A DNA stretch of 64,000 bases from the NCBI GenBank assembly GCA_964187785.1, contig OZ076413.1, positions 68,262,001 to 68,326,000 on the forward strand. Reading direction: 5' to 3'. A program made the translations under genes and the position numbers. The DNA comes from Amphiscolops sp. MND2022. Taxonomy: Eukaryota. The notes under the pieces were generated by a model. That model saw only the letters and a list, made by a program, of their open reading frames with translations, searched no databases and was not told where the DNA came from. Below, piece after piece: positions 1,241 to 33,382 of this stretch (positions are counted from its first letter, which is position 1; each line of letters begins with the position of its first letter).

Positions 1241-2430
1241 TGTTGGTCGAAACGAAGTTCAATTCAAAAATTGCAAGTTTAATCAAAACAATCGTTTTGA
1301 ATGAATGTTTGACAATTTGTTCATCTTGATATATTACGTATAATTCTAATTCCACGGCACAATCAGCAAAGAACTTCAGTTACATTTAGTTAAAAAATAC
1401 TGCATTGGTGGTTACCATGAATTCAGTTAAAATTTTACTTGACCGCTTACGAGTTAACTGGGGGGGTTAAGTCGGCGACGGGGTTAAAGTTAACAGAGAA
1501 CATCCCATTGTTTTGTCAAATCAGCTATTCAGCCGCTGATCAATTTCAACGTCGCGTATCAAGAAGTTTACAGTTTCAACCGTGGGTGATTTCTATTGGC
1601 TAGTCAGCGTCGCGTACCAGCGGCTTGTATCAAGCACATCGACTCATCGACTCACCAGTTTCGTTCTCAAACTTGTTTTCCAACTGTTACAAACTGAGTC
1701 ACCGTTGCAAGCCGTTATCACGAACCAAATTACAGAAGACATCCAAGTTTTTTGCAGCCGATAAAACTGTCACTCAATCCTAATGGTAAGTTGATAGTTT
1801 TGATAACAAAAACTTTTTTGGTTGAAACGTCGGTTTTGGTTGTTTTATAAATCGATTTTGATTGTTTTATAAAGATTACGCACCAAATAACATAAAATAC
1901 TAAGTTCGATTTTATTTTTTCTGCTCTTTTCTGTTTGGGAATTCACCTTTTATAAATTGGTTTCAATCTTAGGTTTTTATGCAATTTGCTGTTATTTTGT
2001 TTAATATTTTTCTGATAAAAAGATCAGCTTTGTTTCTAGCTTGGTTGTTGTTTACAATTAGGTTCCAATCGTGGTTCTACCAGGAAACATATTTTTTCGT
2101 TTTAGATGGAAAGTTTGGTTCTCATTTTGGGTTTGTTTGTTCAAAAACATACTGACAAACTTAGAATAATTTACGACCAATTTATTCTCAAAAGGTGCAT
2201 TTTCAAGAGGATAGTTCGCTGGGGAGAAAAAACAATTAAAAGTTGGCATATTTTCAATTGAAAAACGTACTTCATTTTGCTTTTTTTAAGTCGAAGTCGA
2301 GGAAAACAGCTGCAAGTACTTTTCTGCAAGATGCAGGGATCAGCACTTCCCAGGGTATTCGAAGCCGTAAAGTCTCTGAGTCAACACCAGAACTCTTCCT
2401 TGGTAAGTCAAAACTTTTCGATTTCATCAA
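1241..2430 (+). repeat. Third, 5'-partial copy of the ZnF-JmjC gene region (upstream sequence, exon 1, intron 1, start of exon 2)
   Basis: Aligns by eye with 4793-~6020 and, from ~1410, with 10371-~11410. ORFs at 1582 and 5143, and at 2243, 5832 and 11228, are homologous. Similarity ends near 2430. Confidence 0.85.
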
Positions 2431-4119
2431 ACATCTGAACGATTGTAACAGCGGGTCAAACTACCTTGACTTGGTTCAATTATTTCCAAATGATACGCTT
2501 TTGTAACAGATTTCAATTTGTTCAGAAAATACTAAAATTTGGTTGTTTTCGAACCTTACGCTTCGCTAAATCACTGTGGAAGACTTCTTTTTTGAAATTT
2601 GTTCGTCCAGCCGGCCAAGAACAAAAGGCATCAAGGGGGCAATACCATGAAACCATTCACTATCTATGTACTGGAAAAAATCCTTCAAATTATCTAATAT
2701 ATGAAAAACTTGAGTAGAGAAAGCAAGTTCACTAATTGAAGGTCTGATTTTATTCAATGGTGATAGAGGCATTACCAATAGAATTCTTGGCCACATAATA
2801 AATTTTCCTTCTTCAAGGGTTTATCAGCCCAATTGTAGCCACTTTCGCCAAAAAGTCTGTGGAACATGGAATTAACATCCCTGAATTCCATATTCGAAAG
2901 ATACTTCAATGGAACGGAAAATTGCGTGTTCCAAATTAGTAACTGACAATTTAGGTTGAAAAAACGGTACAAAACTCCGAAGTTGAAGTAAAATAGCAGC
3001 ATACTGAACTCTGACTTTGTCTGTCATCGGAATACAAAACAGAGGGACAGTAGTATCTAGAATGACCCTTTGTATTATTAACAATTGACAAACACAAGAC
3101 GGAACTGTTTTAATGGTAGTATTACAACGAACATCTTCGATTTTTCCAATTAGATCATCAGGAATGTCTGTCGAGAACAAAAGTGCATACTCTCCAAGCG
3201 CTGATGCAAAGAGGTAGAAATTTGTCCCACAAGGTGACGCAAGTCCTTATTTTCTGGCAAGATTTGGTCAGTATCTGGCAGCGTCTTAAAGGTCCGTTTT
3301 GGCACGTCTTTTTTGGATAGTTGAAGAGAATTTTGGGTATGGATTTCGTTGGGCGTTGAATTTTTCTATATGGTGGTTACAAATATCTCAATGTGGGAGC
3401 GTAGTTTTTTTGGAAATTCCTTCGATTTTGTCTTCATTTTCTAGTTTCCGAATAAATATCGAGTCTCCAATGTGACAATGCGGCGTATTTTCAAACAATT
3501 TTATTATATTTTTTGTGTTTTTATATAAATGTACCTATTCGACAGTAAACATTCGAAGCATTTCTCTTTCCATCATTTGGTTTGTGTTCCATTTCGACTG
3601 GAAAACTCGAAAAGCTATTACTACCAATGAACTGTATAAACTACTACAAAAGTCCCTAAATGTAAGAGTAACATTACAGTGCATAGGCAAGCTAAATCGC
3701 TAGAGACACATTTCTTTGCCTGTAGGCCCTCCGATTCCGCAGACATGTCTTAAAGCGTGGAAATATGGCAATATAGCACTGATTTTGCGGAAACCACGCC
3801 ACGAAAATTGGCGTTTTTCGGAATCCGAGGACATGGGTTAATGCATTGGCCGGTTTCATTTTGCGGAATCCAGGACCAAGAATATGCCGCCAAATGCCGC
3901 CAAGATGCCGACAAATGCGTGTCTTGGTTTCCACAAAATTCATATTAACCAATCAGATGGCTGTAACTTTGAGCGTCTCAGTTTGCACTTACAATTAAAT
4001 TAGCCGAAATTAAACTTAATATGCCAGAGAGAATATAAATCAATTATCAAAAACAAGTCCCAATTAATATCTCACTTTTCGAAAAAATGTCGGCTTCTCT
4101 TCTTTTTATTTTTAAATAG

Positions 4120-4570
4120 ATGCTAAGTTTCCTTCATTACCTTATTATATCATGTTGGAAAACACTTAAACTATTGTGAAATACAAAAGTGAAATACTGC
4201 ATTTCTACAAATTGTAATGAATTATAGTATTTCCTTGAAAAAAATGAAATTTTTATTGAAATAATTGGTGTGGAATCGGCGATATTTTGGTTCCAATCGT
4301 GGCTTCACTTGTAAAGCTTTTTAACGGGGGAAAGGTTTTACAGGTGCTAAGTTTCTTTCATTACTTTACTATATCATGGTGGAATATACTTAGACTATAG
4401 TGAAACTCAATAATGAAATACTACATTTCTACAATTGTAATGAAATTGAGTATTTCTTTGAAAAAAATGAAAAATTTATTGAAATAATTGGTGTGGAATT
4501 GGAGATATTTTGGTTCCAATCGTGGGTTGACTTGTGAGGCTTTTTAACGGGTTAATGGTTTCACAAGGGG
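4120..4570. repeat. Diverged tandem dimer, unit ~225 bp
   Basis: TAAGTTTC(C/T)TTCATTAC...GGTTCCAATCGTGG...TTTTTAACGGG occurs twice in direct succession (~4125 and ~4348). Confidence 0.85.
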
Positions 4571-5249
4571 ATAATAACGAAAAAAGATCCCGAATCGAGA
4601 CAATTACAACAATCCATTTTATGCTTAGTCCTTAAGTTTCAACTGGAACAAATTTAAGATTTTGGAATGAAATTTTTTGAAAACTCCTTCGTACCATCAC
4701 AGCAAATACCATTAGCTGTTTAATTCTTTGTTCAAACTTGGATAAATTTCATCAACTTGCATGGATTGGATTTGAAAGATTTTGGTTTCAATTGTTGGTC
4801 GAAACGAGTTCAATTCAAAAATTGCAAGTTTAATCAAAACGGCTTTTTTGAATGAATGTTTGACAATTTTTTCATCTTGATATATTACATATAATTCTAA
4901 TTCCACGGCACAATCAGCAATGAATTTCAGTTACATTTAGTTGAAAAATACTGCATTTTTATTGGTGGTTACCATGAACTCAGTTAAAGTTTTATTTCAC
5001 CGCTTACGAGTTAACTGGGGGGAGGGGTTAATTCGGCGAGGGGGTTAAAGTTAACAGAGAACATCCCATTGTTTTGTCAAATCCGCTATTCAGCCGCTGA
5101 TCAGTATCAGGGTCGCGTGTCAAGAAGTTTACAGTTCCAACCGTGGGTGATTTCTATTGGCTAGTCAGCGTCGGGTACCAGCGGCTTGTATCAAGCACAT
5201 CGACACATCGACTCACCGGTTTCATTCTCAAACTTGTTTTCCATCTGTT

Positions 5250-8200
5250 ACAAACTGAGTCACCGTTGCAAGCTGTTATCACAAACCAAATTACAGAAGA
5301 CACCCAACTTTTTTGCAGCCGATAAAATTGTCACTCAATCCTAATGGTAAGTTGATAGTTTTGATAACGAAAACTTTTTATAAAGATTAGGCACCAAAAA
5401 TCATAAAATTAAAATTAGTTTCAAATACCAAAAAGAAAATTTCATTTTTATGTTCAGTGGCACCTTTCATTTTCTTTATTTGACACTAAGTTTGATTTTA
5501 TCTTTTCTGCTCTTATGCTGTTTGGGAATTCACTTTTTATAAATTGATTGCAATCTTAGGTATTTTATGTAATTTGCCGTTATTTTGTTTATATTTTTTC
5601 TGATAAAAAGATCAGCTTTGTTTCTATCTTGATTGTTGTTTAAAAAATTGGTTCCAATCGCGGGTCTAATAGGAAACATGTTTTTTTGTTTTAGATGGAA
5701 CTTTTGTTTCTAATTTTGGGTTGGTTTGTTGAAAAACATACTGACAAACTTCGAATAATTTTCCACCAATTTATTCTCAAAAGGTGCATTTTCAAGAAGA
5801 TAGTTCGCTGGGGAGAAAAAACAATTAAAACTTGGCATATTTTCATTTGAAAAACGTACTTCATTATGCGTTTTTTAAGTCGAAGAAGAAGAAAACAGAT
5901 GCAAGTACTTCTCTGCAAGATGCATGTCTCAGCACTTTCCAGGGTATTCGAAACTGCAAGGTCTCTGAATCATCATCAAAATTCTTCCTTGGTAAGTCAG
6001 AAATTTTCAATTTCATCACAAATTTACAGTTTCAAAAAGAAACAATGTTTTTGGAAAGTTCTATTTCAACTAATGAGGGACCCTCCTGGACCATCGGGAA
6101 TTACGTCAACAACCTAATTTACGATTATTAAAAGGAGTGAACTCAACTGAAACGACTAAAAGTGTACCTGAACGTTTCTCTACCTTGCGGCCGTATGATT
6201 TTGCTTTTTAACGTATTTATACTCAGGCCATCTCCGCACAATCGGAACCTCTGACCATTATGCCCCCACAGGAGAAGCCCCCACTGTACATGCTCGCACC
6301 TGCCCTGTGCTGCCAGAAGACAGAAAACGGCAACTCTGTGACGAATTTCGAGATACAACTCCGCCACCTAAAAAAAACGTAAGGATTCCAAATTGCCGTT
6401 TTTGAAATTGTTATTTTTTGACAATTCCAATTAACAAACGACAATCTTCGAATAGTTGCATTGAACTGTTTTGTTGTAACACGTGGAACTGAATTTGATT
6501 TGCGTAAGGATGATAAAAGTCTTCTGTTTATGATTATTTTTTTGATTTTGCACCTCGAATAAGCGGTATTGCTTTGTTTTAAGATCCCCGTGTCCGAATT
6601 GCGACTATGTTGCAGGACGAAAATGGCATTTAACGCGCCATCTTCCGTCATGCAAAAGTGTCAGCAAGCACGAGCAAGTGGCTCAGAATTTGACGTGCGA
6701 GAAGTGTGGTCAGGTTTTCACGACCAAAAAAATGATGACGCAGAAGACCTCAAGGAATTGTAATTTTGTCTTCGACATCAGTCAAAGTTTATTTGGAAAT
6801 AAGATTTCACAAATTTTGTGGTTCCAATCATGGGTCGTTTTAGTTCATGAAAAAATAGTTTTTCTTTTTGACAAAAATGCTTTTAAATTTACAGAAGCCG
6901 CGAAAGGGAAGAGAAGAAGCCCCCACTTTTGCTTTTCGTGTGGGAAGTCCTTTGGGTGCGGATACAGTCTGAGGAACCACATAGCCAGATCATTCCGATG
7001 TCAACTTGACAACCACCGATGCCACTCTATTTGACTTTAAAGTTTGGGACCCCTTCGGCCCCATTGGCAACACGAGAGCACTCCGCATTTTGCAAAAACG
7101 TGCCTCTGGAATGTGGATTTTCCTTTGTTCAGTGGCAGGGACATCATGACAATCAAACTGAACACCTTCTTTCTTCGTCATGGTGTCCCATTGATTTGGA
7201 GAAATGGAGCGAAACACTGTAAAGGACTAAAAATCCCTAAAATATCCGATGAAAAAAGGTTTCGCGACAGAGGGCAAACAACTTCTGCAACCGGCCACCC
7301 TCGCGGAACCTGATGCCCCAAGTGAAATGAAGTCAGCCAAAATCGGATAGGTAAATACAATTTGAACCATGATTAGCTTTGTCAATATTCTGTTTTTCTG
7401 AATGTTTCCAATGAAATGCCTTCGAATTTGAACCGTGTTATGCATTTAGAACAAAACAATTTCTTTCAAAATTGAAAAATCATGACTACACATGTCCTTT
7501 CAAAACATGTCTTCCGCATTGTTTTCTTGAACAATTCGTTTCATACTGAAAATTGGAAGAAACCAGGGCAGTTATATTCTTGCGCAATGTGTATACCGCT
7601 TTGAGTGGAAGTCTGCAATGTATTAGGATTTGTATTTTGTTTCCACTGCACGTGTTTAAAGATATGGTATTGTTTTCCGCATTCACTTCTGACGGAAGGC
7701 GAGTTATATTCAGAATCTGTGGAAACCAAGACATTTGCAAGTTCGCGGAAACAGAGCCTAAAGTTGTTAATCAAATAAAGAGTTTTAAACCCAATTCCGG
7801 AGTCAATGAACGCAAAAATTCATTAGAACCAAGCTATTATCATTCAACACGTTTTGTTACAGGTAAGAGAAATGACGTAAGAAGAGTTTTTCGGTGAGTT
7901 GACCAACTGCGATCCAGAAAACCGAAATCACCCTTTATACGTCATCCTTGCCCTTGTTCTACTTCTTATTATGTCCTGGTCACGCACAATTCTGCGCACA
8001 CGACGTGGCCCCAGGATTATTCTTCGACGTCTGTGTTCTACACTCTTCTAGCTGGAGAGAAGATATTCTTTCTGCTGAAACCGTCGAAGAAAAACCTGAG
8101 CATTTTCGAAGATGGTCGAATGCTGAGAACGACACTACGTAAGTATCAACATTTTCATCTAGCTGACCTTGTCTTCGAAAACACTGTTCTCTTTTCCAAA

Positions 8201-9470
8201 AAACAATTATACTTTTTGGCTACTTTGATAAAAGAAAACGACACCACGGAAGCGTTTAAGGTCATATAACTTTTCTCTCGTTTACTTCTCTTTATGTCAA
8301 AAAAGTCAAAATTAAAGTCGAATTACTTTCAGACCAACATTTTTTGAGAACTTCGATCGGCTGGAAGAGAGATGTTTGCGGTTGCATGTCCAAGCTGGAG
8401 ATGTTCTAGTCATGCCCGCCAACTAACTTCCTCCACTTTGTTCTAACGAAGGACGATGCCATATCTTTGGGAACAAACTTTCTGGCATTCGGACACTTGC
8501 CCATGATAAGGCATTCAATCATCGTCGAGTTACCGAAAAAATCCGATGACAAGTTCCTTGATCTTCCGTAGACATTGGTCCTTCTGATGTACCGTATCGC
8601 GGAAAAACTGTGGCCTCGACTGTGTCGATGCCTTGTGTCACAGTACAGCGCAGTGCAATCATTATACATCGAACAAGCTGCCCGCGAAGTAAGATTTTAA
8701 ACTGTCAGTATTGGTTTTTAACCAAACTTAGTTTTTCTTATTTGAACAACATAGAAACATCTTTCATTTTGGTTCCAATCGAGGGTCGTTTTTTATTTTG
8801 AAAATTTCTGTTTTTGAAAAAGACGTTTGTTTAGTTTTGAACAAAACAGAATTTATCTGTTTCATTTTGGTTCCAATCGAGGGTCTTTTTCTAATTCGAA
8901 AACTTTTGTGTATGAAGAAGTCTTTTCCTATGGTCATTTTCTACATTTACGACTTATATATATCAAGTGAAACACTGCCCGCTGAGTAAAAGTTTGTGAT
9001 TCTACGTCATTAGGTTTATGATACACAAACACTATATCAAGATTATTTGATAAAGTTTTCTGTTCACATTGAAAGTTCGGTTTTTTTCGAAAGTATGAAG
9101 AATTAATTTATATTTTACCAAGCAGCCACCAAGCAGCAGCCGCATTTATATGAACAAGCATGCCGGAAAGAGTGTTGACCCCAGTAAGGCTCTCACAGTA
9201 CCAGCTAATGTGCCCATCGCTGACCCCTACACTAAAACCTATGAAGAAAGGATGACGACAACGGATCTACTAGAACTCGAGTCAACACCGGCAATTATGT
9301 TTACCCATGTCAAAGGAAAGCATGGTAGAACAGTTTTGCCGACACAAACGGTAGATCCGTATTTGCACCAGAAACGTAGCCCCTATGTCGCTGCCACTAC
9401 GGGAAGACGTTCAATCCCCCTTGAACTAGACGTTTTAAATTTGGATCAGTTTCCTTTTCATTTGTATTAG
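5250..9470 (+). pseudogene. C2HC zinc finger x3 + JmjC (KDM7/PHF8-KDM2-like) histone demethylase-like gene, copy 1
   Basis: Spliced frames give CPNCDYVAGRKWHLTRHLPSC, CEKCGQVF and CFSCGKSFGCGYSLRNH, then YVLVTHNSAHTTWPQDYSSTSVFYTLLAGEKIFFLLKPSKKNL (cf. PHF8 [37 protein letters not shown]). GT-AG introns, e.g. 5347-5879 and ~6760-6893. Lesions: HxD His replaced by Pro (8009-8011), a 4-nt AACT duplication at 8421-8428, and stop codons. Confidence 0.8.
7480..7740 (+). repeat. Partial ~165-bp repeat array in a JmjC-gene intron (duplicated at ~12880-13140)
   Basis: Contains CCACTGCACGTGTTTAAAGATATGGTATTGTTTTCCGCATT, homologous to the arrays at 9.7, 15.2, 19.3 and 23.2 kb. Confidence 0.8.
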
Positions 9471-9654
9471 AAAAACACAAATTACCTTACAAGCCGTTTT
9501 ATCCAGTACCAAGCTTAAGTGAGGATGCAAAAAAGAAGAAAAAAATATACACGTTCAAAACATGCTTTGAAACAATTGGGAGATCTAATGCAAAAGTTGC
9601 ACAGAAACTGAAACTTCGTTGTTCTGCTAAAATGTGACACAAATCAGGAGTACA

Positions 9655-10180
9655 CCCCTTCAAGTGAATTTCCGCAATGTATTAAAGTTCGTGTTTGGTT
9701 CCCACTCCATGTGTTTAAAGATATGCCCTTGTTTTCCGCATTGCTTTGAGCAATTCGATTCCTACTGATAAGCGTGGAAACCAGGACACTTATGGTCATC
9801 ACGCGCTATCCTGTGTATACCCCTTTGAGTGAAAGTACGCAATGTATTAGGATTTATGTTTGGTTTCCACGCCATGTGTTTAAAGATATTGCCTTGTTTT
9901 CCGCATTGCTTTCTTTGAGGGAGTCAATTTGTACTGAAAAGCGTGCAAACCAGGACAGTTCAGATTGTCAATTTCGTTTTGGTAAAAATCGAGGGTCGAT
10001 CTTTTAGTGACACGACTGATACATGCATTTAAATGCAAGTAGAAACCACCCTACGACTCTTTTATTCATAAACTACAAAATTTTCATAAAAGGCAAAAAC
10101 TTAACGAAAAAAAAACCTAAAAGTGGCGGATCTTTCCAAAATAATTTGGTTCCAGGACAGTCGAAAGTTCGCTGAAACGG
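9655..10180 (+). repeat. ~165-bp repeat array plus conserved tail module (duplicated at ~15150-15670)
   Basis: (G/A)TGTTTGGTT(C/T)CCAC(T/G)CCATGTGTTTAAAGATAT at 9691 and 9856 (period 165), followed by AATCGAGGGTCGATC...CTACGACTC...TGGTTCCAGGACAGTCGAAAGTTCGCTGAA. Confidence 0.9.
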
Positions 10181-10649
10181 TGCCTTTTTTTACTAAGGAG
10201 CATCACAGGAAACCTAATGCTATGATTTAGGAATTTATTGAAAAGATTCAACAAGTTCGGATAACACTTGAACTAGAAGAGAGCCTTGATACAAAAACAT
10301 TATTGTTTAAAAGTGCCATCACGGTATTTTTCGAGAGCGGCAATTGCAGAAACACCTTCACCCAGTGTGAGTTACCATGAATTCAGTTAAAGTTTTATTT
10401 CACCGCTTACGAGTTAACTGGGGGGTTAATTCGGCTAGGGGGTTAAAGTTAACAGAGAACATCCCATTGTTTTGTCAAATCAGCTATTCAGCCGCTGATC
10501 AATATCAGGTTCGCGTATCAAGAAGTTTACAGTTTCAACCGAGGGTGATTTCTATTGGCTAGTCAGCGTCGCGTACCAGCGGCTTGTATCAAGCACATCG
10601 ACTCATCGACTCACCAGTTTCGTTCTCAAACTTGCTTTCCAACTGTTAC

Positions 10650-13600
10650 AAACTGAGTCACCATTGCAAGCCGTTATCACAAACCAAATTACAGAGGACA
10701 CCCAACTTTTTTGCAGCCTATAAAACTGTCACTCAATCCTAATGGTAAGTTGATAGTTTTGATAACAAAAACTTTTTATGAAGATTAGGCACCAAAAAGC
10801 ATAAAATTGAAATTAGTTTCAAATACGAAAAAGAAAATTTCATTTTTTTGTTTAGTGGCATCTTTCATTTTCGTTATTTGACACAAAGTTTGATTTTTTA
10901 TTTTCTGCTCTTATGCTGTTTGGGAATTCACTTTTCATAAATTGATTCCAATCTTAGGTATTTTATGTAATTTGCCGTTATTTTGTTTATATTTTTTCTG
11001 ATAAAAAGATCAGCTTTTTTTCTATCTTGATTGTTGTTTAAAAAATTGATTCCAATCGCGGGTCTAATAGGAAACATGTTTTTCGTTATAGATGGAACTT
11101 TTGGTTTTAATTTTGGGTTGGTTTGTTCAAAAACATACTGACAAACTTCGAATAATTTTCCACCAATATATTCTCAAAAGGTGCTTTTCAAGAGGATAGT
11201 TCGCTGGGGAGAAAAAACAATTAAAACTTGGCATATTTTCAATTGAAAAACGTACTTCATTATTCGTTTTTTAAGTCGAAGACGAAGAAAACAAATGCAA
11301 GTACTTCTCTGCAAGATGCATGTCTCAGCACTTTCCAGTGTATTCGAAGCTGCAAGGTCTCTGAATCATCATCAAAACTCTTCCTTGGTAAGTCAGAAAT
11401 TTTCAATTTCATCACAAATCTACAGTTTCAAGAAGAAACAATGTTTTTGAAAAGTTCTATTTCATATAATGAGGGACCCTCCGGGACCATCGGGAAATAC
11501 GTCAACAACCTAATATACGATTATTAAAAAGAGTGAACTCAACTGAAACGACTAAAAGTGTACCTGAACGTTTCTCTACCTTGCGGCCGTATGATTTTGC
11601 TTTTTACCGTATTTATACTCAGGCCATCTCCGCACAATCGGAACCTCTGACCATTATGCCCCCACACGAGAAGCCCCCACTGTACATGCTCGCACCTGCC
11701 CTGTGTTGCCAGAAGACAGAAAACGGCAACTCTGTGACGAATTTCGAGATACAACTCCCCCACCTAAAAAAACGTAAAGATTCCAAATTGCCGTTTTTGA
11801 AATTGTTACTTTTTGACAATTCCAATTGACAAACGACAATCTTCGAATAGTTGCATTGAACTGTTTTGTTGTAACACACGGAACTGAATTTGATTTGTGT
11901 AAGAATGGTAAAAGTGTTCTGTTTATGATTATTTTTTTGATTTTGCACCTCGAATAAACGGTATTGCTATGTTTTAGGATCCCCGTGTCCGAATTGCGAC
12001 TATGTTGCAGGACGAAAATGGCATTTAACGCGCCATCTTCCGTCATGCAAAAGTGTCAGCAAGCAGGAGCAAGTGACTCAGAATTTGACGTGCGAGAAGT
12101 GTGGTCAGGTTTTCACGATCAAAAAAAATGATGACGCAGAAGACCTCAAGGATTTGTAATTTTGTCTTCGACATCAGTCAAAGTTTATTTGGAAATAAGA
12201 TTTCACAAATTTTGTGTTTCCAATCATGGGTCGTTTTAGTTCATGAAAAAATAGTTTTTCTTTTTGACAAAAATGCTTTTTAATTTACAGAAGCCGCGAA
12301 AGGGAAGAGAAGAAGCCCCCACTTTTGCTTTTCGTGTGGGAAGTCCTTTGGGTGCGGATACAGTCTGAGGAACCACATAGCCAGATCATTCCGATGTCAA
12401 CTTGACAACCACCGATGCCACTCTATTTGACTTTAAATTTTGGGACTCCTTCGGCTCCATTGGCAACACGAGAGCACTTCGCATTTTGCAAAAACGTGCC
12501 TCTGGAAAGTGGATTTTCCTTTGTTGAGTGGCAGGGACATCATGACAATCAAACCGAACACCTTGGTATTCGTCTTCGTCATGGTGTCCCATTGATTTGG
12601 AGAAATGGAGCGAAACACTGTAAAGGACTAAAAATCCCTAAAATATCCGATGAAAAAAGGTTTCGCGACAGAGGGCAAACAACTTCTGCAACCGGCCACC
12701 CTCGCGGAACCTGATGCCCCAAGTGAAATGAAGTCAGCCAAAATCGGATAGGTAAATACAATTTGAACCATGATTACCTTTGTCAATATTCTGTTTTTCT
12801 GAATGTTTCCAATGAAATGCCTTCGAATTTGAACCGTGTTATGCGTTTAGAACAAAACAATTTCTTTCAAAATTGAAAAATCATGACTACACATGTCCTT
12901 TCAAAACATGTCTTCCGCATTGTTTTCTTGAACAATTCGTTTCATACTGAAAATTGGAAGAAACCAGGGCAGTTATATTCTTGCGCAATGTGTATACCGC
13001 TTTGAGTGGAAGTCTGCAATGTATTAGGATTTGTATTTTGTTTCCACTGCACGTGTTTAAAGATATGGTATTGTTTTCCGCATTCACTTCTGACGGAAGG
13101 CGAGTTATATTCAGAATCTGTGGAAACCAAGACATTTGCAAGTTCGCGGAAACAGAGCCTAAAGTTGTTAATCAAATAAAGAGTTTTAAACCCAATTCCG
13201 GAGTCAATGAACGCAAAAATTCATTAGAACCAAGCTATTATCATTCAACACGTTTTGTTACAGGTAAGAGAAATGACGTAAGAAGAGTTTTCCGGTGAGT
13301 TGACCAACTGCGATCCAGAAAACCGAAATCACCCTTTATACGTCATCCTTGCCCTTGTTCTACTTCTTATTATGTCCTGGTCACGCAAAAATCTGCGCAC
13401 ACGACGTGGCACCAGGATTATTCTTCGGTTCAGTTCTACACTCTTCTAGCTGGAGAGAAGACATTCTTTTTGGTGAAACCGTCAAAGAAAACGCTCAGCA
13501 TTTTTGAAGATAGTCGATTGCTGAAAACGACACTACGTAAGTATCAACATTTTCATCTAGCTGACCTTGTCTTCGAAAACACTGTTCTCTTTTCCAGAAA

Positions 13601-22138: not shown

Positions 22139-22580
22139 AACATGACGTCTCGAATAGGGCAACGGTCAAACGTCCAATGCTCCCACCAGTTGATATGGTA
22201 ATTTTACGAAAACTTGATTAAGTATTGTTTAAATTTTCGCTCCAATTGAGGGTCATGTTTCGCGGAAACCAGTTTACTTTTTAATTCCTAGATGATACGT
22301 TGTCAGTTTTAAATACTTTTTAAATTTTTCTAAATTACTTGTTCAAATACTTCTTCAAATGGACATGACATCTCGAATAATGTAGCGTTCAAATGTCCAA
22401 TGCTCCCACAAGTTGATACGGTAATTTTAGGAAAACTTGATCAAGTATTGTTCAATTTTTCGTTCCAATCGAGTGTCAAGTTTCGCGGAAACTATTTTAC
22501 TTTTTAATTCCTATATGACACAATATCAGTATTAAACACTTTTTGAAATTTTCTGAGTTACTTTTCCAATTTCTCTTCAT
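22139..22580 (+). repeat. ~222-bp tandem duplication spanning the end of exon 1 and the start of intron 1 of the YR-SET gene
   Basis: ACATGAC(G/A)TCTCGAATA...TCCAATGCTCCCAC...GGTAATTTTA.GAAAACTTGAT.AAGTATTG occurs at ~22140 and ~22362. Confidence 0.85.
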
Positions 22581-23139
22581 TTTTGTAGATTGTTCTTGCC
22601 AAGAAGAAGAAGAAGTCTGACTACAAAACGGATACAGTTAGGTCCTTCATTGAATGGACAATAACAGAAAAAAAAGTCACGTTGTAGAAAGAACATTCTG
22701 TCTGTCAAAAAGTCCAAATAGACTTCTTTCGAAATCTACTGGCCTACGTTTTGATTTTCTTGGATTTTCTGGATCGGGAGGTCAGCAACGTGACTGTTCA
22801 GGCCGTGATGCAGGCTGTAGTTCAGATGAAAGAATCAGACAGCAAAAAGAACTCTTTCGTGCTTGAGATACATGTAGCAGAGAGGTGCGTCAGAAAAACT
22901 TGCTACAATATCCCACGATGGTTATTGGAAGGCGTTGTTGATTACTATGTGAGTGTTCGAAGCGAGTTTTCGACCCACGGCGAGGGATCTCCTTTCGAAA
23001 AACTTCTGAGTGAGACAGACGATCGAATCCTGCACACCGAATTGTTTTTTTGTGAACTTAGCTGGGTAATCCAATTTCCGACCTAGCCACGTTGTTGACC
23101 AGTATATGGAGTCGGTATGTATGATCAAATCATGACCAC

Positions 23140-23750
23140 ACCCCTTTGAATAAAAACAAGTCATGGATACGGCTATGTGGTTTGGTTTCCACGTCATGTG
23201 TATAAACATACAGTATTGTTTTCGGCATTGGTTTTTTTGAGCAAGTCAGTTTATACTTAAAAACTATAGAAACTAGGAAAGTTATAGTCACGCGCAATCC
23301 TGTGCCCCTTTGAGTGAAAGTACGCAATGTATAAAGTTTTGTGTTTGGTTTCCTTGCCATGTGTTTAAAGATATGTCCTTGTTTTTCACATTGCTTCCTT
23401 TGAGCAATTCGAATCTTTCTGGAAAGCGTTGAAACCAGGACACTTATGGTCACGCGCTATACTGTGTATACCGCTTTGAGTGAAAGTACGCAATGTATTA
23501 GGATTTGTGTTTGGTTTCCACGCCATGTGTTTAAAGATATGGCCTTGTTTTTCGCATTGCTTTCTTTGATCAAGTCAATTTATACTGAAAAGCGTGGAAA
23601 CCAGGACAGTCCAGATTGTAGATTTCGTTTTATTAACAATCGAGGGTTGATCTATTTCTGACATATTACATGCATTTAGAGTGCAAATAGACACTATCCT
23701 ACGACTCTTCCAAAAAATGCAAAAACTTCAACAAAAAAACCAAAACTGAA
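23140..23750 (+). repeat. ~165-bp repeat array (about 3 units) plus truncated tail in the YR-SET intron
   Basis: Unit starts at ~23177, 23341 and 23507. Confidence 0.9.
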
Positions 23751-25389
23751 ACTTAGTACTTCTTTAACAAGTACTCAAACACTGCGACAGTCCGCTGTGG
23801 GAATTGGAACGGCGAGTTCAAATTGTGCTGCCCGTGGCAAACAACACTGAATCAATACTCCCGAATTGAAGGTCCAAACAAGAGCAATCTAGGAGACTCT
23901 GGACATTGCCTGGGATTACCAGATCATGCAGTCGGCGATGAGAAGGCACCAGGATCGCCAGCGATATGCCCGCCAATCAGCTCGTGCCCATGCTTTTTTC
24001 AAGCACATGAATGGGGAAGCTGACCTTGTTTCGTTGGATATGCGACTCAAGAGTTATTTTCAGCGACAGAAATGGACCACACAAAAGACTGCAACCAAGA
24101 CCTGAGAAAAGTTTATTTACTTGTGTTGCCCATGTTTATCACTCCCGAAGTTGAAACGAACGTAGCAATTCAAAAGAATTATTATAAAGGATTTGCGAGC
24201 AACATGGAGTTTGAAGACCAAACTCTGCTCATGGAGAGAAGTCGATCTCAAAACTGGCCCAGAGTCACACAGGTTCTTTTCAGCAAGTTCGGACGGAAAA
24301 TTGTTGCAACCAGAGTGTTTCAGAAAAAAGAAGACGTCATTGATTACCACGGGCCGTTTTTCACGAAAAAGTCATTGGATGAAGTATCCGCCATTGAAGT
24401 TGTTAAACGGTAGTTATGTCTCGAAGTGAAAGGACCTGGCCGAGGAATAATCAATGCCTCTAAGGAAACGTGCCCGGTCCACCCTGATAGTAGATGTATG
24501 GGTCGTCTTGCCAATCACTCACTTGTGGAAGCCAATGTGAAGTCCACTGACGTCATTGTGTTTGCTGACAACAACCAACGTGATGTTGTCCTCCGAGCCA
24601 GCAGAACAATTCATCCCTTCGAACAATTAATGTTCGACTGCGAGGATCTGATAGCTCGCTCTGAGTTCAGTGAATCACAGTCAGGAAGCAGCTCTGGAAA
24701 CACCAGCGGTCGCTTCAGCGGTAGTCAAGAACCAAGAAAAGAAAACAGTGTCAATCTTGCAGATGAATCGGACGAAGAAAATTGACGATGAAAGCGAACT
24801 TTCATTCATAAACTTTTAGACTTTTGTGGCATTGGTCTTATTGTACGTGATTGTTTAAATTGCTGTTACTCAGTTTCAACTGGAACAATTTTGAGATTAA
24901 AATGCTGACGAAAGCTTGAACTTGTTTTTAAATCATTTCAAATCAGTTTTTGTAACACTTGCAACGCTATGCAAATTATAATTTTGGTTTGAAGAAGTCA
25001 ATTACGTTGTAATCATAATCACATTTGAGTGCAACAAGTGTTTCAAAAGACTTCACACCAAAAGTTACATCACAAGCACGTTGATAATCAGAATTAAAAG
25101 AAAACGTACTGCAAAAAGTTACAAAATGTCACAAGTTCAATTGTAAGTCTAAAAACTAGGTTTTAGCACGTATTGCTTTCCATTTTTGCTTGGATCTTTT
25201 GATCAAATGAAATAAAAATGAAAGATTAAAACGCAACTGTTTTTGAGAAAACAATTAAAATTTTGGTGCCAGTCGTGGGCCGAGTTGTGATGCTTCATTT
25301 CATAAATAACAAAATCAATCGAAATATGTGCGTTTTTGAGTTTGATTTAATATAGCGACAGACAGGATGAACTGATAGACAGAAAAAAC

Positions 25390-25646
25390 GGATGCAGTGG
25401 CGCAGTGGACCTTCAATTAGGCCCTCTGAAGTCTTTTACCGAATCGATCAGGGGACAATACAGAGTTGTCTGTATTGAGTCGCCTGGCAGAGTGTTTTGA
25501 TGGGGATCGATCCGTTGACAGACTACGCCGCAACCTTCACTACTCGCCTTATCAACTGCGCCACCATCCCCGTTAGGCCGTTGCAATGGACACATTTATA
25601 AACTTTTGTTTGATGAACTTGATTACCAACCACTGCGCCGTCATCC
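25390..25646. mobile_element. Possible small MITE
   Basis: GGCGCAGTGG (25399-25408) and CCACTGCGCC (25630-25639) are inverted, with an imperfect outward extension GGATG.../...CATCC. No TSD seen. Confidence 0.35.
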
Positions 25647-25667
25647 ATATGACACTTAAAATGCAAG

Positions 25668-28600
25668 CTTAGAACATAGCAAGCGAGCTAGTGAGCGGTC
25701 GCGCTATGTCAACAAACAAATTCAACACTGCGCAACAATGCGTAACGAACAAATCTCAACTGAAATCATGAAAACTATAAAGTGCGGAAATTTTTTCAAA
25801 AATAAACCAAAAAACACAAATGATCCAGAAAGTACTTCAGAAAAGACTGATTATTCTGAACAATTCTCATCATTGAATCAAAATGCAAACGATACTCAAC
25901 CAGGGACTTCATCTTTATCCATTACTATTCTTTGGAAGAATCCCAAGCAGGACTACCGGGCAGTCGTTACCAATTTGAGCCCGAATTTCACCAGAGTACA
26001 AAAATTGTTTCGAATGAAAAATTTTCCTCCCTTTACTCGTACGCATTTACAAACTACTGAAAAACTACAAACGAGTGTTATGTTGCTATACTCTGGAGCT
26101 TCTCTCCAAGATTGCGACCGATTATAACGATTGCAAAAACTCACACAATCATTGGCAACCATAAGCTGCAAACCTGCATGGTTACTGCCCCCATAGAAGC
26201 AGAGGAAGAAGTGGCAAACATGCAGCTTACAGTACTACAAAGTCTAAATCGTACAATCCTTCCTACCGCTGACGAAAAATAGCGGTACAGCCTATCCATG
26301 TATTCACAAAGTTCACTTTACGGATTGAAGGATTAGCAATCTTATGCGGTGATGAAGAATTGCTTGGGGTGATTCAGATGCCATGCGGAGACATTCTTTC
26401 AGAAATTAACAGGCACTCAGTTACAACAGAAGTCGGAGTGGTCTACACTGGAACAACTCATGCAACACTCCAATTCAAAAGCGAAGAGGAAAAGAATATC
26501 CTAAAAGACTGGTCCAGAGCCAATGGTATTTTTGATACTTCTGATACAACGAATTGACATGTAATTACCATCATAGCACATGTACCACGACTTCATTCCT
26601 GCTCAATCTGTTCAACGCAGACAGGATGCGAATCTTTTGGAAACGATGAAGCATGAAGACCAGTCATCCACGTCCTGTAGAACCAATTGAAAAGAGAATT
26701 GCAGCTGATGACAATGATGAACAAATAGATGAGAACAATACACCACTGAATGAACGAGACAATAACATTGAACTAGAGGATGGAGAGATCGAACCAGATG
26801 AAGGAGACAATGAACAAGAAGATTGTTCATGGTATGAACAAAAGAGAAACCACAGTAAAAAAGAAAAGGCTCGGGTGCTAACCCCATCTTCTACGCCAGC
26901 AAAAAACAAGTTTCAAGCATTTGCAGATGAAACTTCCATCTCTCACCAAACTTCACCACGCAACAGATGTCCGATCCCACAAAAACAACTCTTTAACGGA
27001 TAGTATGGGGGTTTTTAGTCTAAATTGTAGAGACCTCGGCTCTAGCCAACGACTCATTGAGGTATGTTCTCTAGTCAATAGGGCTAAACACGCTGATTCT
27101 TTTATAATTTCACTTCAAGAAACTAAACTTTCGGAAATCAAAAAACAACACTTGAAAGTTATTGAAACTGAAAAGTTGAAATACATACCAACTCCTTCCG
27201 TAGGAGCATCGGGCGGGCTCAGATGCATTTTCCCAGAGAGAACTCATGCACACAAAAATGCTGAATGTAGCGATTGTCAAGCAATACACTCGATTCGTGA
27301 AAACATACTAATTTTGAACTCATATATTACCCCGAAAGATACATCCTTGACTAGCTTCATGAGCTTCATGAAGGACTTGGATTTATGAAAGTTCAAGCAA
27401 GTGTATCTAGTGGGAGACTATAACGCGATTTGTCCAGTAGATTTTCTTCTGAAATCAAAACACATGACAAACGACTACTAAAGTATACAAAACTTACCTC
27501 CACTCTAAATTCTTTTGGTTTCCGCGATCTGGCAAAAAAGAACTCTCCCGTTTCTCCCACACCTTACGACAAACGTATCAAACAATGGTCTCGACTAGAT
27601 TTTATCTACTGCTACCCGTCTAAGCATAATAAATTCTTGACTTCATACAAACGTCTTTTTCAGACCATATATTACTTTCTGCATATGAGCTCACCGATGA
27701 TGACTACGGCACAAACATCTGGAAACGAGATCACTAAGTGCTCCAAAACAAAGATAAAATTTCGGAAATTTTGAATTTCTACTTTAAAAGAATGAAATCT
27801 ATAAATTCAACCCAATACGAGTTATTCGAAGCTCGTTTACACTGCTCCCTGAAAAAACTTAACATACAAGTAATACAAGTTAAGCGACAAAGGAATGAAC
27901 ATGAAAAAAGTTTGCTCTCGAAAAAAACCCAACTGGAGAATATCATTTTGTCCGAAAGAAATAATGAAATGATTTCCCAATACGAACAAGCTGTGAACGA
28001 GCTTCGCTCTTATCGTTTTTCAAGATACCAGAGTAAAGGAAACTTGATCAAAGGTTTCTACCGAGACGTGAATGAAGGCGATCCGAAAGCTACGAAAAGT
28101 ATGTTAACTTCTAGACGTAAAAAAGCAACATTAAAATGCTGAAAACTGATGAAGGCGAAATACTTACGGAACAAACACAAATCTTAAATTAGATTCAAAA
28201 ATGGTATGAGAAAACATCGAAAGAAAACCTTTTTAATCTTTCTAATGGGACAACACCTGAGAGAATTGTGGACATTCAGGCGTCGTACATAGAAAAATAT
28301 GTACCTGTACTTTTTCGAAACTCATCTGTCTTTAATGAAAATAGCACTGAATATGAAGTCAGTAAGGCTATATCGAGACTTAATCAAGTTAGCGTTCCTG
28401 GACCTGACGGTCTCACCGCCAAATTGTAAAAATCAAATATAGATTTTTTTGCTCCGTTACTCACAGAACTATTCAATAAAATTAGTGAAACAAAACTCCA
28501 TGCTCAGTTTTCAATTATTAAACTTTTACCAAAAAAATCCACATCTGTAGAAATAGGCGATTTTCGCCCACTGAGCATGATGAACACTGACCAAACAATT

Positions 28601-30387
28601 CTGTCACATATCTTGTCTGAAAGAATTAAAGTATCGGTATCGGAAGTGGTAGGCAGTCATCAAACGGCCTGTTTGCCGAATAGAAGCATCCATACAACAC
28701 TGTTGAAAATTCGAAAAAAAAGCTAGCATAGTCATGATTGAATTCAGCAGTGCATTTGACAGAATAAATCGATTCCTTCTGATGCAGATTGTGGACAAGC
28801 TCAACATCAATGATATTACTAAAAAACAAATTAGGCTTATGTATGGAGAAACAATCTGGTTTGTTAAATTGAGCGGTTTTTGTCGCTTCCAATATTAATT
28901 GAAAGGGGTGTTAGACAAGGATGTTCGCTATCTGCTCTTCTATTCGACGTCGGTCTCGAACCTTTGTTACGTCAGATACAGTCAGATAAAGAGATAGTCT
29001 CCGAAAACGACCAAACCATCCTTGCTTATGCTAACGATATAACTGCGGGAGATATCATTGACTCGCTTCCCCGTCTTTTTGCTGACTTCGACCACTTCAA
29101 GCCCATTTCAGGATTGGAGATTATTGACACCAAAACTGAAACAGCCACCAATGGCATACTACCTGAAAATATTACTCCGTCAAAAACTATTGCAGTTCTA
29201 GGAGTACCTATTTGGCCCACTAACCATGATACCCGCGTTTCCGGTAGTCTCATGATACCCGCGTTTTATAGCCGAAATTGCTAGAATAGCTTCTCGATAT
29301 GCCCTGCAGTCCATGTCCTACAAAGCCAGATCAAAAAACATCGAAGTCTTTGTAACTTCCAAACTTGTTCATAGACTGAGACATCCTAATAATCGAAAAA
29401 AAACTGACGGGGAAATTGAATCGCGACCTAATTAACCAATTCTGGCAAAATAAAAAATATAAAGTCAATTCTGAGATCATACACTTGGATTTGAACGAAA
29501 GTTTTCTCAGGCTCAAAAACCTTCCAATTTTAGTTACAGCGTGTAAAATCATGGACTCGAAGGAATTTCACTTCCAAGAGCAAAATCGGTATCTAGTAGA
29601 AAACATTTTCGGGAGCTCTTTTTTTTCTCAGCGAAAGATTTAAAGTTGAATGCAGAAAGAAAAGAATTTTGGAAATCAGAGACCACAAACTGATGATTAA
29701 ACAAGGAGGCCTCGAAAAAAAATTACAGCAGATACAAAACCAGAGAAAGTTATAGCTTTCTGATAGATTTTTGTATCCGAACAAAAGCGATAGATAGGTT
29801 TTCTGAAGGCGCTCAAAAATTAATCATGAGAAAAGAAAACTTAATACTCTTCGTTCAAAAGTTATGGAAACTGGAATCTTTGCTAGCTTTCCAAAAAAAC
29901 ATTATTTATTATCTTCTGATGGGAAGTATCATAGATAAACCAGAAAAGTGGTTAAGAAACTTAGTCCCTCATCCCATTTGCTTCCAATGCGATGAAAAAA
30001 TTGAAACGTTTCATCACTTGATCATGGACTGCAGAAAAACGCGGGGTTTACGCAATGATCTCCAAATACGAAATTGGAAGTTTTTCTCCAACGACAGGGC
30101 CTCTTTGAAACCTAAATTCTTAGTATCAATATCGTATGCTCATGGACTGAAAAGCCAATAAACATTCAATATTTAATAAACGAACTTAAGAAAGATTAGG
30201 CTAAGTTTTTTCCTAGAGAACACTTTTTCAATACCTTCGAAATTGTTGAATTTTTCTTTCTTGACGTTAGTTGGTGTTTGACATTGTGCTTGATATCATG
30301 TTTTAAAGTTGTAAGTTATTTTGTTTATGATACTCTTAACTCTTAACCATTAACCATGATTACAAAGTAATCTATTTTTTTTGAAAT
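25668..30387 (+). mobile_element. L1/Tx1-clade LINE, near full length, inactivated
   Basis: ORF1-like region 25.7-26.95 kb. ORF2: SLNCRDL, LQETK, GASGG, NSYITP and LVGDYN (APE); PGPDGLT, FRPLSMMNTD, AFDRI, GVRQGCSLSALLF and AYAND (RT, YADD decayed); CFQCDEKIETFHHLIMDC (C-terminal CCHC). Many stops and frameshifts. Confidence 0.88.
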
Positions 30388-30736
30388 CTTAAAAGAATGC
30401 AAGTGAAAAGATTTTGGTTCCAATTGTGGGTCGAATCGTCATAATTCAATTTCTTATTAGAGTTGAACTTCGGAATAGCGTACTGTCAGAATAAATTAAC
30501 TCATGTAGTTACGTAATCGTTTGTCGTGACCTATAAAAAATAGTATTCTATAAGCGTAATAATTATTCAAAGCAGCATCAGGGACTGTAGTTTTTTGCGC
30601 CGCTAAAATCGCATAATGAGCCCGTAGTTTTGAGAATGCGAGTCAAAGCGCATAATCGAGCGCATATCCTGCTCTTTTTGATGTTGCTACACAAAAGCTT
30701 TTAGTTTATTAGCAAATAGATATCGTTCAAAAAAAC

Positions 30737-30805
30737 CCGTTGGCCAAATAGGATGCGTGCTAGCTTTCCGATCGTAAGATCGTAGGTTCCGATCCCGCTA
30801 ACGGC
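30737..30805 (+). mobile_element. tRNA-like sequence, probably a tRNA-derived SINE head or tRNA pseudogene
   Basis: CCGTTGG/CTAACGG can form a 7-bp acceptor stem. A-box-like TGGCCAAATAGG and B-box-like GGTTCCGATCCC. Anticodon and T stems do not pair properly. Confidence 0.4.
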
Positions 30806-33382
30806 AAATATTCAGAAAAGACTGCCTGAATTTATTTGTATTTTTACCATCAAATGTATTTCAAAGAGCTTTGAAAAAATGCAAGAAAAGCTAGCCGTTG
30901 TTTTTTACTGTTTGGTAAATTTACTATATAATTTTTGTTCTTTTGCCAACCAAAGCCTAATTTTGAATTCTTCCTGAGCATCATTGCCTCTATTGAATAA
31001 AGCATTAAATCCTTTGTTTCCAACCGAACTTTAGATACCGAAAATTACAGTCTTATCATGATGGAAAAGAATTAGAAACAACGCTTACGGATCTTTTCTG
31101 TTAATCCCCCCACTAACTTATTCCACTTCAGTTGATGGTCAAGAAAAATTATCAGTGAATTAATAGTAATGATCAATCAAATAGCAGTATTTTCTATAAC
31201 TGTAATTCATCGCTGATAGTGGTTGGAAATGAAATTTCTGCGCATACTGCGTGGGGGAGGGTTTGCGGAATATTCAACGAAAAAGACCATCTTTAAAAAA
31301 AGCTCATTTTTCTACCAACTGTAATGAAATTGAACAAAAAGGAAAATTTTAATGATATAATTGGTGTGGAATTGGAGATATTTTGGTTCCAATTCTGGGT
31401 CAAAACGTGAAGCTTCATTTAACAGAAGTTTGTTTCCGAGCACTATCTCTTCTAGCAATTTTCATCTGTCTTCAAGAGATAAAATATTATTAATATATAT
31501 ATTATTATGAGCGGAAACATATTATTATCGATCCGGAATGTGGGTGTACGAATTACTCTACTGAATAAAATTCAAGAATCTGAGACACTTTGCACTATTT
31601 GCTCTCTACATAATTGTCCCTATTGAGGCCTGGCATAAGTGGCAATTAATTGGCCCCATTAACTTGCCAAGACACAAAAATGCGGAAAGTAAGGAAGCTA
31701 AGGCAGTCGATATCAAAGGGGAATGAGCTCAGTGCACGCGTCTCAGTTTCCGAGATTTCATCAGTGCCACTACATCCTTAAGGGGAAGATACTACACAGA
31801 GCAAAAGACCAAGTTGAAGCTCTCAGAATTGAAGACAAACTGGAATAACTCGATGAGAAACAAACTTTCTTGGTTGACAAAAAAGTTTTGGAGAACTTGA
31901 AACTCGTTCTGTGGTGAATTTCAAAACACCTTCTGGAAAAGTGCTGCAAAAACACAGACAGTTTTTACAATCAGTTCTCGACGCAGCATGACTAAAAACA
32001 ATTTCTGGAGCAAAACATTTTCTTTTGACTGAGAATCCACAGCATCACTGAGAATCTTGAGAAAAAACCAGAAGACGTTGTACCAATACATAAAAAGGAG
32101 ACCGGGAAACTCAGAAAGATACGTAGAAAAATTGATCGAGGACTCAAAGATTACGGCGTGATTCCAGATAATTTGAGAATACAGATCTTTGAATTTTTCA
32201 ACTACGGGCAAAATGTCCTACCGACTAATGACGTGGAAACCGACTGATCATTTCACATCAACATGCTCTTTTTAAAAACTGGAGGGTCTCTGGAAAGCGG
32301 AAAGTGGAAAAAACAATTGCAATAGTTTTCAGCTAAAACAATGTCATTTGGTTGTGTGAAACTTGGCTGGATTCGAGTGTAGAAGACTCTCAACTACAAC
32401 TGAAAGAGTGCAAACTCTATCTAACAAACATTCCTTTTTGAAAGGTACTCCTTTCCATAAAGGTTCTCTAATCGCAGTGAAAATGCACGTGTATCCAAAC
32501 ATGTGGACATCGAAATATCTGACTGCTGTGAAGCCGGTTTCATTGCAGTGGATAAATTTATCCTGTGTGCACTCCACAACCCAAACGATGATAGCAAATA
32601 TTGTTTCGAAAAAACTGACTTTGAAAAAAAACTCCATTTTAAACTTCAATCAGGCCACAATCGTCTGTTTTGACATGATTTTGTCTACCATGAACTGAAA
32701 CATGTTATGCATCACCGACGTCTATGACCCAAATGTCAAAGCGTTCTTTGATCAGCACCTGCTTCGACAGATTGTTGACTTTCGTACTTGTTCAAAAAAG
32801 AACTGACTTGTTCTTCCACAGGATATGTGATATCTTGTCTTAAACTGATGAAGACTTCACGATGAACTTCAACATTGCAATTCTCATATCAAAGCAAATG
32901 AGACTCAAATGCTCGCATAGTCAACAGAAACATTTTTATGGAGAGTATCGAAGCTACGAGACTGACAAATTTAACAAAATCACAAACTTTACGCCAAACC
33001 AAAAATATTTCAAGCGTTTGAATTTTCTCAACAAAACCAACCGCCTTCACAAATTTATTTCCTAGGTGGCGCTATCAGCAGTTCGGAAAACAAATGAGCT
33101 CGCTTTTTCGTTGAAAGTCTCCACTCAGTCTTCTCCCCGAAACAATCATACACCCTGATTGATATCCGAAACGTAGAATCAAACTTGACGAAGTTTGAAG
33201 TCTCAAAACAAAAAATCTGAAAATCTGCACTAATCTATATTTCACCAAAGCAAGAAGTTCAAACAAATTCCTTCCAGTACATGTCGCAGGGATATCCGTG
33301 CGAGGTGTCCGGAGTGCAACGTAATTGAAGCAGTCAACGCCAGCATCATGATGCTTTAACACGTAATTTTGCTTGTAATTTA

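Follow-up and report, generated by a model that had tools for sequence, protein, structure and literature searches.

The locus described here lies in a 64,000-nucleotide stretch of the genome of Amphiscolops sp. MND2022 (GenBank assembly GCA_964187785.1, contig OZ076413.1, positions 68,262,001 to 68,326,000 of the forward strand), referred to as the window, with coordinates counted from its first letter. The window contains a decayed, multi-gene, cargo-rich RAG1-like transposon, through which copies of a short motif are scattered in a single orientation. The genes recognized were those for a DDE transposase of the RAG1/Transib fold, for C2H2-type zinc fingers (ZnF) joined to a JmjC domain and for a protein ending in a SET domain, together with two genes, X and Y, lacking detected homologues (Table 1). 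The common motif and a bracketing inverted repeat, both seen in this one copy, suggest that these genes form one mobile unit.

A homologue search with the transposase gene returned 125 relatives. Six long relatives were 34 to 72% identical, two of which represent clusters of 72 and 128 members, and those at 57 to 72% identity come from multi-member clusters; the large clusters point to a repeated transposase family. The motifs DxWGDG, SGD, CPDxxH and HxxEGxEKSNH were kept in the relatives, and a BRCT domain was present in several. An AlphaFold model of one relative, P0131 (predicted local distance difference test score [pLDDT] of 79.5), best matched RAG1, BbRAGL and HzTransib, with a Z score for RAG1 of 16.5 (root-mean-square deviation of 6.1 over 454 aligned positions) and a range of 16.5 to 10.6 for RAG1/Transib structures as against 7.8 for the IS256/Mutator-type ISCth4. 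Foldseek matched the same model to RAG1 (E = 3e-7) and HzTransib (E = 8e-6), and Atlas neighbours carry RAG1_RNase_H. A sequence profile of the transposase run against PDB gave three chance matches and did not find RAG1, and the fold of the N-terminal domain was uninformative (best Z of 6.2, pLDDT of 60). A protein-profile search of a prokaryotic genome-contig collection yielded 15 pattern matches, none of which was confirmed, and a search of this collection for the motif yielded 0 loci; both results carry little weight given their prokaryotic scope.

The ZnF-JmjC gene matched Pfam zf-C2H2_4 (E = 1.9e-5), PHF8 (E = 4.6e-7) and a KDM7 homologue (E = 0.0018). The helix of finger 1 reads RKWHLTR, with R at −1, H at 3 and R at 6, while finger 2 is missing a His. 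The JmjC iron ligands (H-x-D and a distal H) are present in copy 2 of the gene; in copy 1 the first ligand is replaced by P. The SET gene matched Pfam SET (E = 1.3e-6) and SETD8 (E = 0.015); its middle part was likened to a tyrosine recombinase by eye only, with no profile or structure match, and homologue searches with the SET piece and the recombinase-like piece returned nothing. The element holds both a predicted eraser (PHF8-like, 7898-8690) and a predicted writer (SETD8-like, 24024-24785) whose host counterparts act on H4K20me1. A Pfam-type domain search detected no polymerase, Rep, helicase or capsid among the 147 open reading frame (ORF) pieces.

The motif, of about 22 bp, has the consensus ATTTTGGTTCCAATYRWGGGTCR and is a genuine, polar, element-linked cis sequence. 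In a scan of the window, the exact word GGTTCCAAT was found 11 times on the plus strand, at the positions listed in the original prediction, and never on the minus strand. All 12 of the variants that had been listed were recovered within 2 nt of their stated positions and were likewise on the plus strand. The motif extends further than first described, being preceded by ATT and having a degenerate central YRW. A 20-letter pattern, TTTGGTTCCAATYRNGGGTC, allowing up to 3 mismatches, gave 21 matches, 21 of 21 on the plus strand, against a mean of 0.05 in shuffled sequence. A position weight matrix (PWM) was trained on 10 unrelated contexts and applied to both strands with cut-offs of 8 and 12 bits. 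Thirty-three matches in the window exceeded 8 bits; 29 exceeded 12 bits, all on the plus strand between 1957 and 31383 (2.1 in simulated sequence), and 23 of these reached at least 18.7 bits and are termed strong copies. The remaining four scored 10.8 bits or less and were located outside 1957-31383. When each family was left out of training in turn, held-out copies scored 13.9 to 36.4 bits, compared with a maximum of 12.0 on the minus strand or past 32 kb. Within the window, comparable numbers were not present on the minus strand or outside the element. Both the PWM and pattern scans detected no strong copies inside the L1 insertion (about 25353-30178) or after 31.4 kb, in agreement with what had been reported. 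Half-site scans showed no clear strand bias, and no fixed spacing was found, the gaps ranging from 98 to 4117 bp.

The region is a mosaic of same-orientation tandem and segmental duplications, including a duplicate pair at 1241-2429 and 4793-6018, two mutually unrelated 223-bp tandems and one 98-bp tandem; in these three short tandems, every unit holds one motif. As the copies are consequently not independent, polarity was tested on the 10 families, or independent contexts, into which the 23 strong copies collapse. All 10 contexts were on the plus strand (P = 0.002, two-sided) and all 10 were in non-coding DNA (P = 0.0007, with our own exon estimates covering 52% of the region), in line with the introns and intergenic DNA originally named as the setting of almost all copies. 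Weak matches of at least 8 bits inside the element were also all on the plus strand (9 of 9). Flank alignments between families detected, besides B/B3, only two weak pairs (z of 3.2 and 5.9) among 132 comparisons; two family C contexts share approximately 10 to 20 nt on either side of the motif and were counted as one family. Between unrelated contexts, the motif core was 78% identical as against 29 to 30% in the flanks. Family-fixed differences were concentrated at positions −2, 6, 12-14 and 19-20, while the blocks GG, CCA and GGG had at most one such change per position and GGG was invariant in 10 of 10 contexts. These constrained blocks around a tolerant three-base centre suggest a protein-contacted site.

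Several peculiarities of the duplications were noted. The 223-bp tandems at 4121-4565 and 22135-22570 have an exactly equal period in unrelated sequence; kinship of the two units was rejected as their alignment score fell within shuffles. The 165-bp modules sit in introns and intergenic DNA, and three of them finish in a small imperfect hairpin (by eye). The left duplicate at 1241 starts inside motif C at position 12, matching 4793. A 27-nt word, identical at 25 of 27 positions, occurs in one orientation in two unrelated intergenic regions (4635-4661 and 24872-24898); read on the reverse strand, it is similar to the motif's left half.

The orientation of the motif is constant beside both plus- and minus-strand genes. 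A splice signal, which the original prediction had argued against, was rejected, as the distance to splice sites varies and one copy is antisense. This antisense copy, at about 20730, had been placed in an intron of a minus-strand gene. The segment (D2; copy at 20728) scores as non-coding and has GT/AG ends flanked by minus-strand reading frames; gene Y having no detected homologue, its strand rests on open frames and on a codon model that scores it best on the minus strand but put 2 of 11 training pieces off-frame. Segments with D and D2 copies were non-coding in all six frames by this model. One frame reads through the family D segment (6760-6894) in this copy, yet the segment scores as non-coding.

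Inverted homology between 4818-5153 and 31007-31311 scored 79, with shuffles reaching at most 44, and was unique in the window, known duplicates aside. The first 25 nt of the two arms are identical at 22 positions, and each arm has an A-rich box, the spacing of which differs by 8 nt. The CAC-headed arms at 4909 and 31221 are a candidate terminal or subterminal repeat and recall Transib/RAG repeats (PMC8355894). Similarity outward of 4909 and 31221 was borderline (P of 0.03 to 0.6). Transib and RAG-like transposons produce a 5-bp target site duplication; none was found at 4909/31221, where 2 of 5 flank positions match. Owing to this absence and the borderline outward similarity, the termini are not fixed. 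An alternative CAC/GTG pair at 4562/31542 has flanks matching at 4 of 5 positions (joint chance of 0.002 per pair, the best of 12 pairs) and poor arm similarity. The motifs adjoining the arms (4782 and 31383) point alike and, hence, the motif is not an inverted end signal. Inside the arms, the core of weak site J looks micro-inverted (5131; 31014-31027), with TTCCAACCG on the plus strand in both; this is a single post hoc case. A third inverted arm at 3913-4083, borderline at first, was unsupported on re-test, inversion of the segment between the C and B sites was rejected for want of homology and a short perfect terminal inverted repeat was tried and rejected.

Table 1. Genes, repeats and motif copies of the element
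Feature	Position	Strand	Remarks
RAG1/Transib-fold DDE transposase gene	15785-18968	−	C-terminal BRCT; broken (frameshifts, stops, altered catalytic motifs)
ZnF-JmjC gene	5344-9630	+	Spliced, broken; three C2H2-type fingers then KDM7/PHF8-like JmjC
ZnF-JmjC, extra copies	2056-2429; within 10371-15859		First partial; second copy within the latter span
SET gene	21832-24785	+	Spliced, broken; SETD8-like SET domain at end
Gene Y	20070-21470	−	Spliced; no homologue (no Atlas or PDB match)
Gene X	2430-3500	−	Degraded reading frame; no homologue found
L1-type long interspersed element (LINE) insertion	25353-30178 (ends approximate)	+	Degraded; RVT_1 E = 6.5e-8; weak 8-nt flanking repeat; motif-free
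Tandem duplication, ~5.4 kb	4968-15859 (4968-10368 + 10371-15859)	+	~4% diverged; junction not at motif
165-bp repeat module	19258-19788	+	Relatives at 7508-7736, 9650-10176, 12909-13137, 15154-15667, 23140-23750; one orientation throughout
Inverted repeat, left arm	4909-5001	+	Strong core starts CAC; weaker similarity 4818-5153; duplicate at 1358
Inverted repeat, right arm	31137-31221	−	Weaker similarity 31007-31311
Motif A	2056-2078	+	Within duplicated left end
Motif B	4284-4306	+	First 223-bp unit
Motif B	4507-4529	+	Second 223-bp unit
Motif C	4779-4801	+	Homology to duplicate at 1241 begins at motif position 12
Motif A	5645-5667	+	Predicted intron 1 (5347-5694) of ZnF-JmjC gene
Motif D	6815-6837	+	Predicted intron 6760-6894, between fingers 2 and 3
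Motif E	8766-8788	+	First 98-bp unit; downstream of splice donor at 8689
Motif E	8864-8886	+	Second 98-bp unit
Motif F	9976-9998	+	End of a 165-bp repeat module
Motif A	11043-11065	+	5.4-kb duplicate
Motif D	12211-12233	+	5.4-kb duplicate
Motif E	14178-14200	+	5.4-kb duplicate
Motif E	14276-14298	+	5.4-kb duplicate
Motif F	15467-15489	+	3′ of minus-strand transposase gene
Motif F	19583-19605	+	5′ of minus-strand transposase gene
Motif G	19837-19859	+	Single; intergenic
Motif D2	20725-20747	+	Antisense in predicted intron 20671-20792 of minus-strand gene Y
Motif H	22233-22255	+	First 223-bp unit; predicted intron 22198-22588 of SET gene
Motif H	22456-22478	+	Second 223-bp unit
Motif F	23627-23649	+	Predicted intron 23115-23771 of SET gene
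Motif I	25260-25282	+	Single; immediately before L1
Motif C	30411-30433	+	After L1
Motif B	31380-31402	+	Last copy; context 31309-31423 is direct homologue of 4426-4548
Weak motif J	5128-5150	+	Also at 1570 and 10529
Further weak motifs	1957/5544/10942; 2115/5704/11101		Latter family overlaps exon and may be chance

A number of possible identities for the motif were rejected or found no support. The site is not a transposase end site, since the inverted repeat differs from it in sequence and the motif has the same orientation beside both arms, nor a recombination signal sequence, there being no inversion at the two ends, and neither CAC nor GTG stands at a distance common to the copies. A tyrosine-recombinase site, judged against a published site architecture (PMC3212892) of two inverted arms of 11 to 13 bp around a 6- to 8-bp spacer, found no support: a test with 11-bp arms detected none (best mean of 4.2/11, random 4.1), and 1 of 20 breakpoints fell in a motif. 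In this window, a fragment of a short interspersed element (SINE) or miniature inverted-repeat transposable element (MITE) was rejected, as there were no common flanks, target duplications, opposite orientations or copies outside the element; the check for outside copies covered the other 32 kb of the window, and no consistent flanking target duplications were found around the motif. An RNA hairpin was rejected (consensus fold of −0.9 kcal/mol, 2 pairs, no covariation), and there was no Rfam or tRNA match. A tRNA B-box was rejected as the motif has an invariant C where a purine is expected and no tRNA was found. Nothing supports the replication or packaging role that had also been suggested, the 147 ORF pieces holding none of the genes expected. 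KOPS and baculovirus homologous-region (hr) repeats, with which the motif had been compared, are dispersed repeated cis signals, KOPS being strand-polar; unlike these, the element is without a polarity switch, translocase, palindromic hr structure or viral genes.

A directional protein-binding site specific to the element is the most likely explanation of the motif. This part of the original prediction stood; a transposase end site and a recombinase site found no support. Of the three binders it had proposed, the ZnF protein fits best, and a KDM7/PHF8-like demethylase is joined to its fingers. We consider it plausible, though still tentative, that the motif is an element-specific cis site recruiting the element's own ZnF/KDM7-like demethylase against silencing. 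Docking of the zinc fingers would take place roughly once per kilobase, at sites in introns and intergenic DNA; the JmjC domain would clear repressive marks (H3K9me1/2, H3K27me2 or H4K20me1) from the element, and their loss would allow escape from host silencing. Sites would have been gained by same-orientation copying, through short tandems and dispersal of the 165-bp module, with preservation of the strand. Arg at −1 of a finger helix specifies G. His at 3 and Arg at 6 also specify G (PMC1920264), and finger 1 is predicted to read GGG, the invariant block of the motif. The degenerate YRW triplet would in that case lie opposite finger 2, itself degenerate, which is a post hoc fit. Members of the KDM7/PHF8 family remove H3K9me1/2, H3K27me1/2 and H4K20me1 (PMC13632499).

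Several points weigh against a docking site for the demethylase. The match of finger 1 to GGG is itself post hoc, and two to three fingers with non-canonical linkers would read 6 to 10 bp rather than 22, such that a partner or further domain is needed. Strong copies at 4287, 4510, 4782 and 31383 lie outside the CAC-bounded span of 4909-31221 and, hence, the description of the motif as element-specific depends on the true ends. Compared with the 9-bp arrays of VANC21, a plant system considered below, the sites are considerably longer and more thinly spread. Between paralogues, motif and flanks are equally conserved (31 differences in 299 columns where approximately 32 were expected, hand-summed); this absence of excess conservation fits neutral decay of a dead copy and equally a functionless relic, with no sign of selection. 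Finally, tandem copying covers the orientation within each cluster but only partly that across 10 contexts spread over 30 kb. As element-wide polarity is thus only partly explained by same-orientation copying, it may also reflect a directional role.

Such a role could be that of a polar loading or tracking signal for a directional process, such as looping, head-to-tail oligomerisation or end synapsis over about 20 kb, with polarity itself selected and the transposase (through its extra N-terminal domain) or a SET-fused protein as the reader. The polarity of the 10 strong contexts and 9 weak matches, maintained on both sides of the inverted repeat, is in its favour, and at the place in the inverted arm where J would be expected, the minus strand has no site (best of −0.2 bits), a plus-strand half site lying at 31014 instead. 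This half site (8.9 bits) is, however, within the chance range of half-site scores, no polarity switch of the kind needed for two-ended synapsis was seen, no motor or helicase gene was found among the ORF pieces and the uninformative fold of the transposase N-terminal domain (best Z of 6.2, pLDDT of 60) lends no help. We regard a tracking signal as unlikely.

A somewhat smaller probability attaches to collected sites for a host insulator or boundary factor of the BEN or CTCF kind that shields the element. Boundary sites are often orientation-dependent. Compared by eye with the 11-position Insensitive consensus, TCYAATHRGAA, the core TCCAATYR agrees at the first 8, and the site recognized by Elba is an asymmetric CCAAT (PMC4281564). 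The final three letters of the consensus mismatch, however, and the GGGTC block is left unexplained. Furthermore, in the remaining 32 kb of the window no motif site lay close to a host-like gene, no BEN match was obtained with the element pieces and the CTCF and B-box consensus sequences differ from the motif at key positions (by eye).

The relic already mentioned would have no function, being a footprint or remnant that a very small mobile unit, or an ancient tandem array, left behind and that same-orientation copying spread. Besides the paralogue comparison, this explanation has in its favour that the 165-bp modules are likewise all in one orientation and that variation at motif positions 12-13 can be accounted for by CpG decay (CpG transitions of 34/259 versus 13/238 for GpC). 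Copying alone would not be expected to produce sharp motif boundaries and a free position 14, and the unrelated flanks of the different families (two weak exceptions besides B/B3), the lack of a consistent target duplication and the absence of the motif from L1 and the second half of the window also oppose it; we judge a relic improbable. Least probable of all, and doubtful, is that an element-encoded recombinase uses the motif for recombination or nicking, whether as an att-like site or as a rolling-circle origin. Although the duplicate at 1241 opens inside motif C at position 12 and all sites are in the direct orientation that excision would need, only one of the 20 breakpoints is in a motif, the 11-bp inverted arms are lacking (4.2/11 versus 4.1 at random), the recombinase lacks confirmation, a Rep is missing among the ORF pieces, and excision between intronic sites would delete exons.

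Other features of the window were also noted. tRNA-like heads at 25385-25520 and 30735-30815 have A- and B-box look-alikes by eye and are probably of SINE type; ARAGORN found no tRNA. A repeated word, TGGTTCACCTAGT, occurs at 42454, 42707, 43341, 44352 and 44652 in both orientations, likely as MITE ends, and, unlike the motif, is non-polar. Genes of host-like character, bearing ShK, cystine-knot and PAN domains, were located at 43458-45098 and 61503-61691. LINE-like sequence at 33772-37821 forms a near-perfect tandem duplication of 2027 bp (99.6% identical), and near-perfect inverted repeats (arms of 34 and 110 nt, 1-nt loops) adjoin each other at 60650-60938. Degraded minus-strand pieces of a long terminal repeat retrotransposon extend over 47245-59000, with a reverse transcriptase RNase H match at 56901-57080 and a 97% identical repeat pair approximately 5 kb apart.

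The closest parallel to the array is the VANC21 system of the Arabidopsis transposon VANDAL21, whose motifs form non-coding, same-orientation arrays amplified by tandem repeats (PMC5735166; PMC10398659). In both cases, a multi-gene DNA transposon carries a family-specific short motif, multiplied in tandem and kept in one orientation, in introns, intergenic and terminal non-coding DNA. The present element differs in its animal host, in having a RAG1/Transib-fold rather than a Mutator-type (VANA) transposase, in its sparse 22-bp sites as opposed to dense 9-bp arrays and in the lack of a VANC-like Pfam match among its pieces, the predicted candidate reader being a histone demethylase. While the array would work like a VANC target array, the element is not a member of that system, given its other type of transposase and the absence of a detected VANC. 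Joining of fingers to a JmjC domain is shared with REF6, which binds CTCTGYTY and in which C2H2 fingers target the JmjC domain to a DNA motif (PMC11929476), while the catalytic domain is nearest to PHF8/KDM7. Both of these are host genes, and KDM7 uses a PHD finger where the transposon protein has C2H2-type fingers. With Transib and RAG-like elements (ProtoRAG), the element shares a RAG1-like fold, catalytic motifs and, as a candidate end feature, a CAC-started inverted repeat core with an A-rich box, but it is too distant for RAG1 profile matches, has an extra BRCT domain and several cargo genes, has no RAG2-like gene that could be seen and no target duplication that was found, and its polar motif is neither heptamer nor nonamer.

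The sequence-specific transposon anti-silencing found in print is the plant VANC system, and a review gives VANC21 and plant PMD proteins as examples of counter-silencing (PMC8616336). No description of a transposon-encoded JmjC anti-silencer, or of a RAG1-like/BRCT element with such cargo, was found in the accessible parts of a literature without Repbase and most subscription papers. A wider proposal, which we put forward as speculative, is that of a RAG1-like animal transposon family in which a polar array of 22-bp sites recruits two enzymes, a ZnF eraser of KDM7 type and a writer of SETD8 type. Such a family would have an anti-silencing system that converged on plant VANC with histone enzymes as its parts; site polarity may steer spreading or looping, and fingers and sites may co-evolve between families. 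Whether or not this mechanism holds, the motif provides a sensitive tag by which the transposon family can be mapped. If the pairing of reader and site is true, animals would offer a case open to direct testing, in which both the enzyme and the site are named and finger 1 is predicted to contact GGG; the protein would be a programmable demethylase of natural origin, and the element a new, cargo-rich branch next to the ancestor of the V(D)J recombinase.

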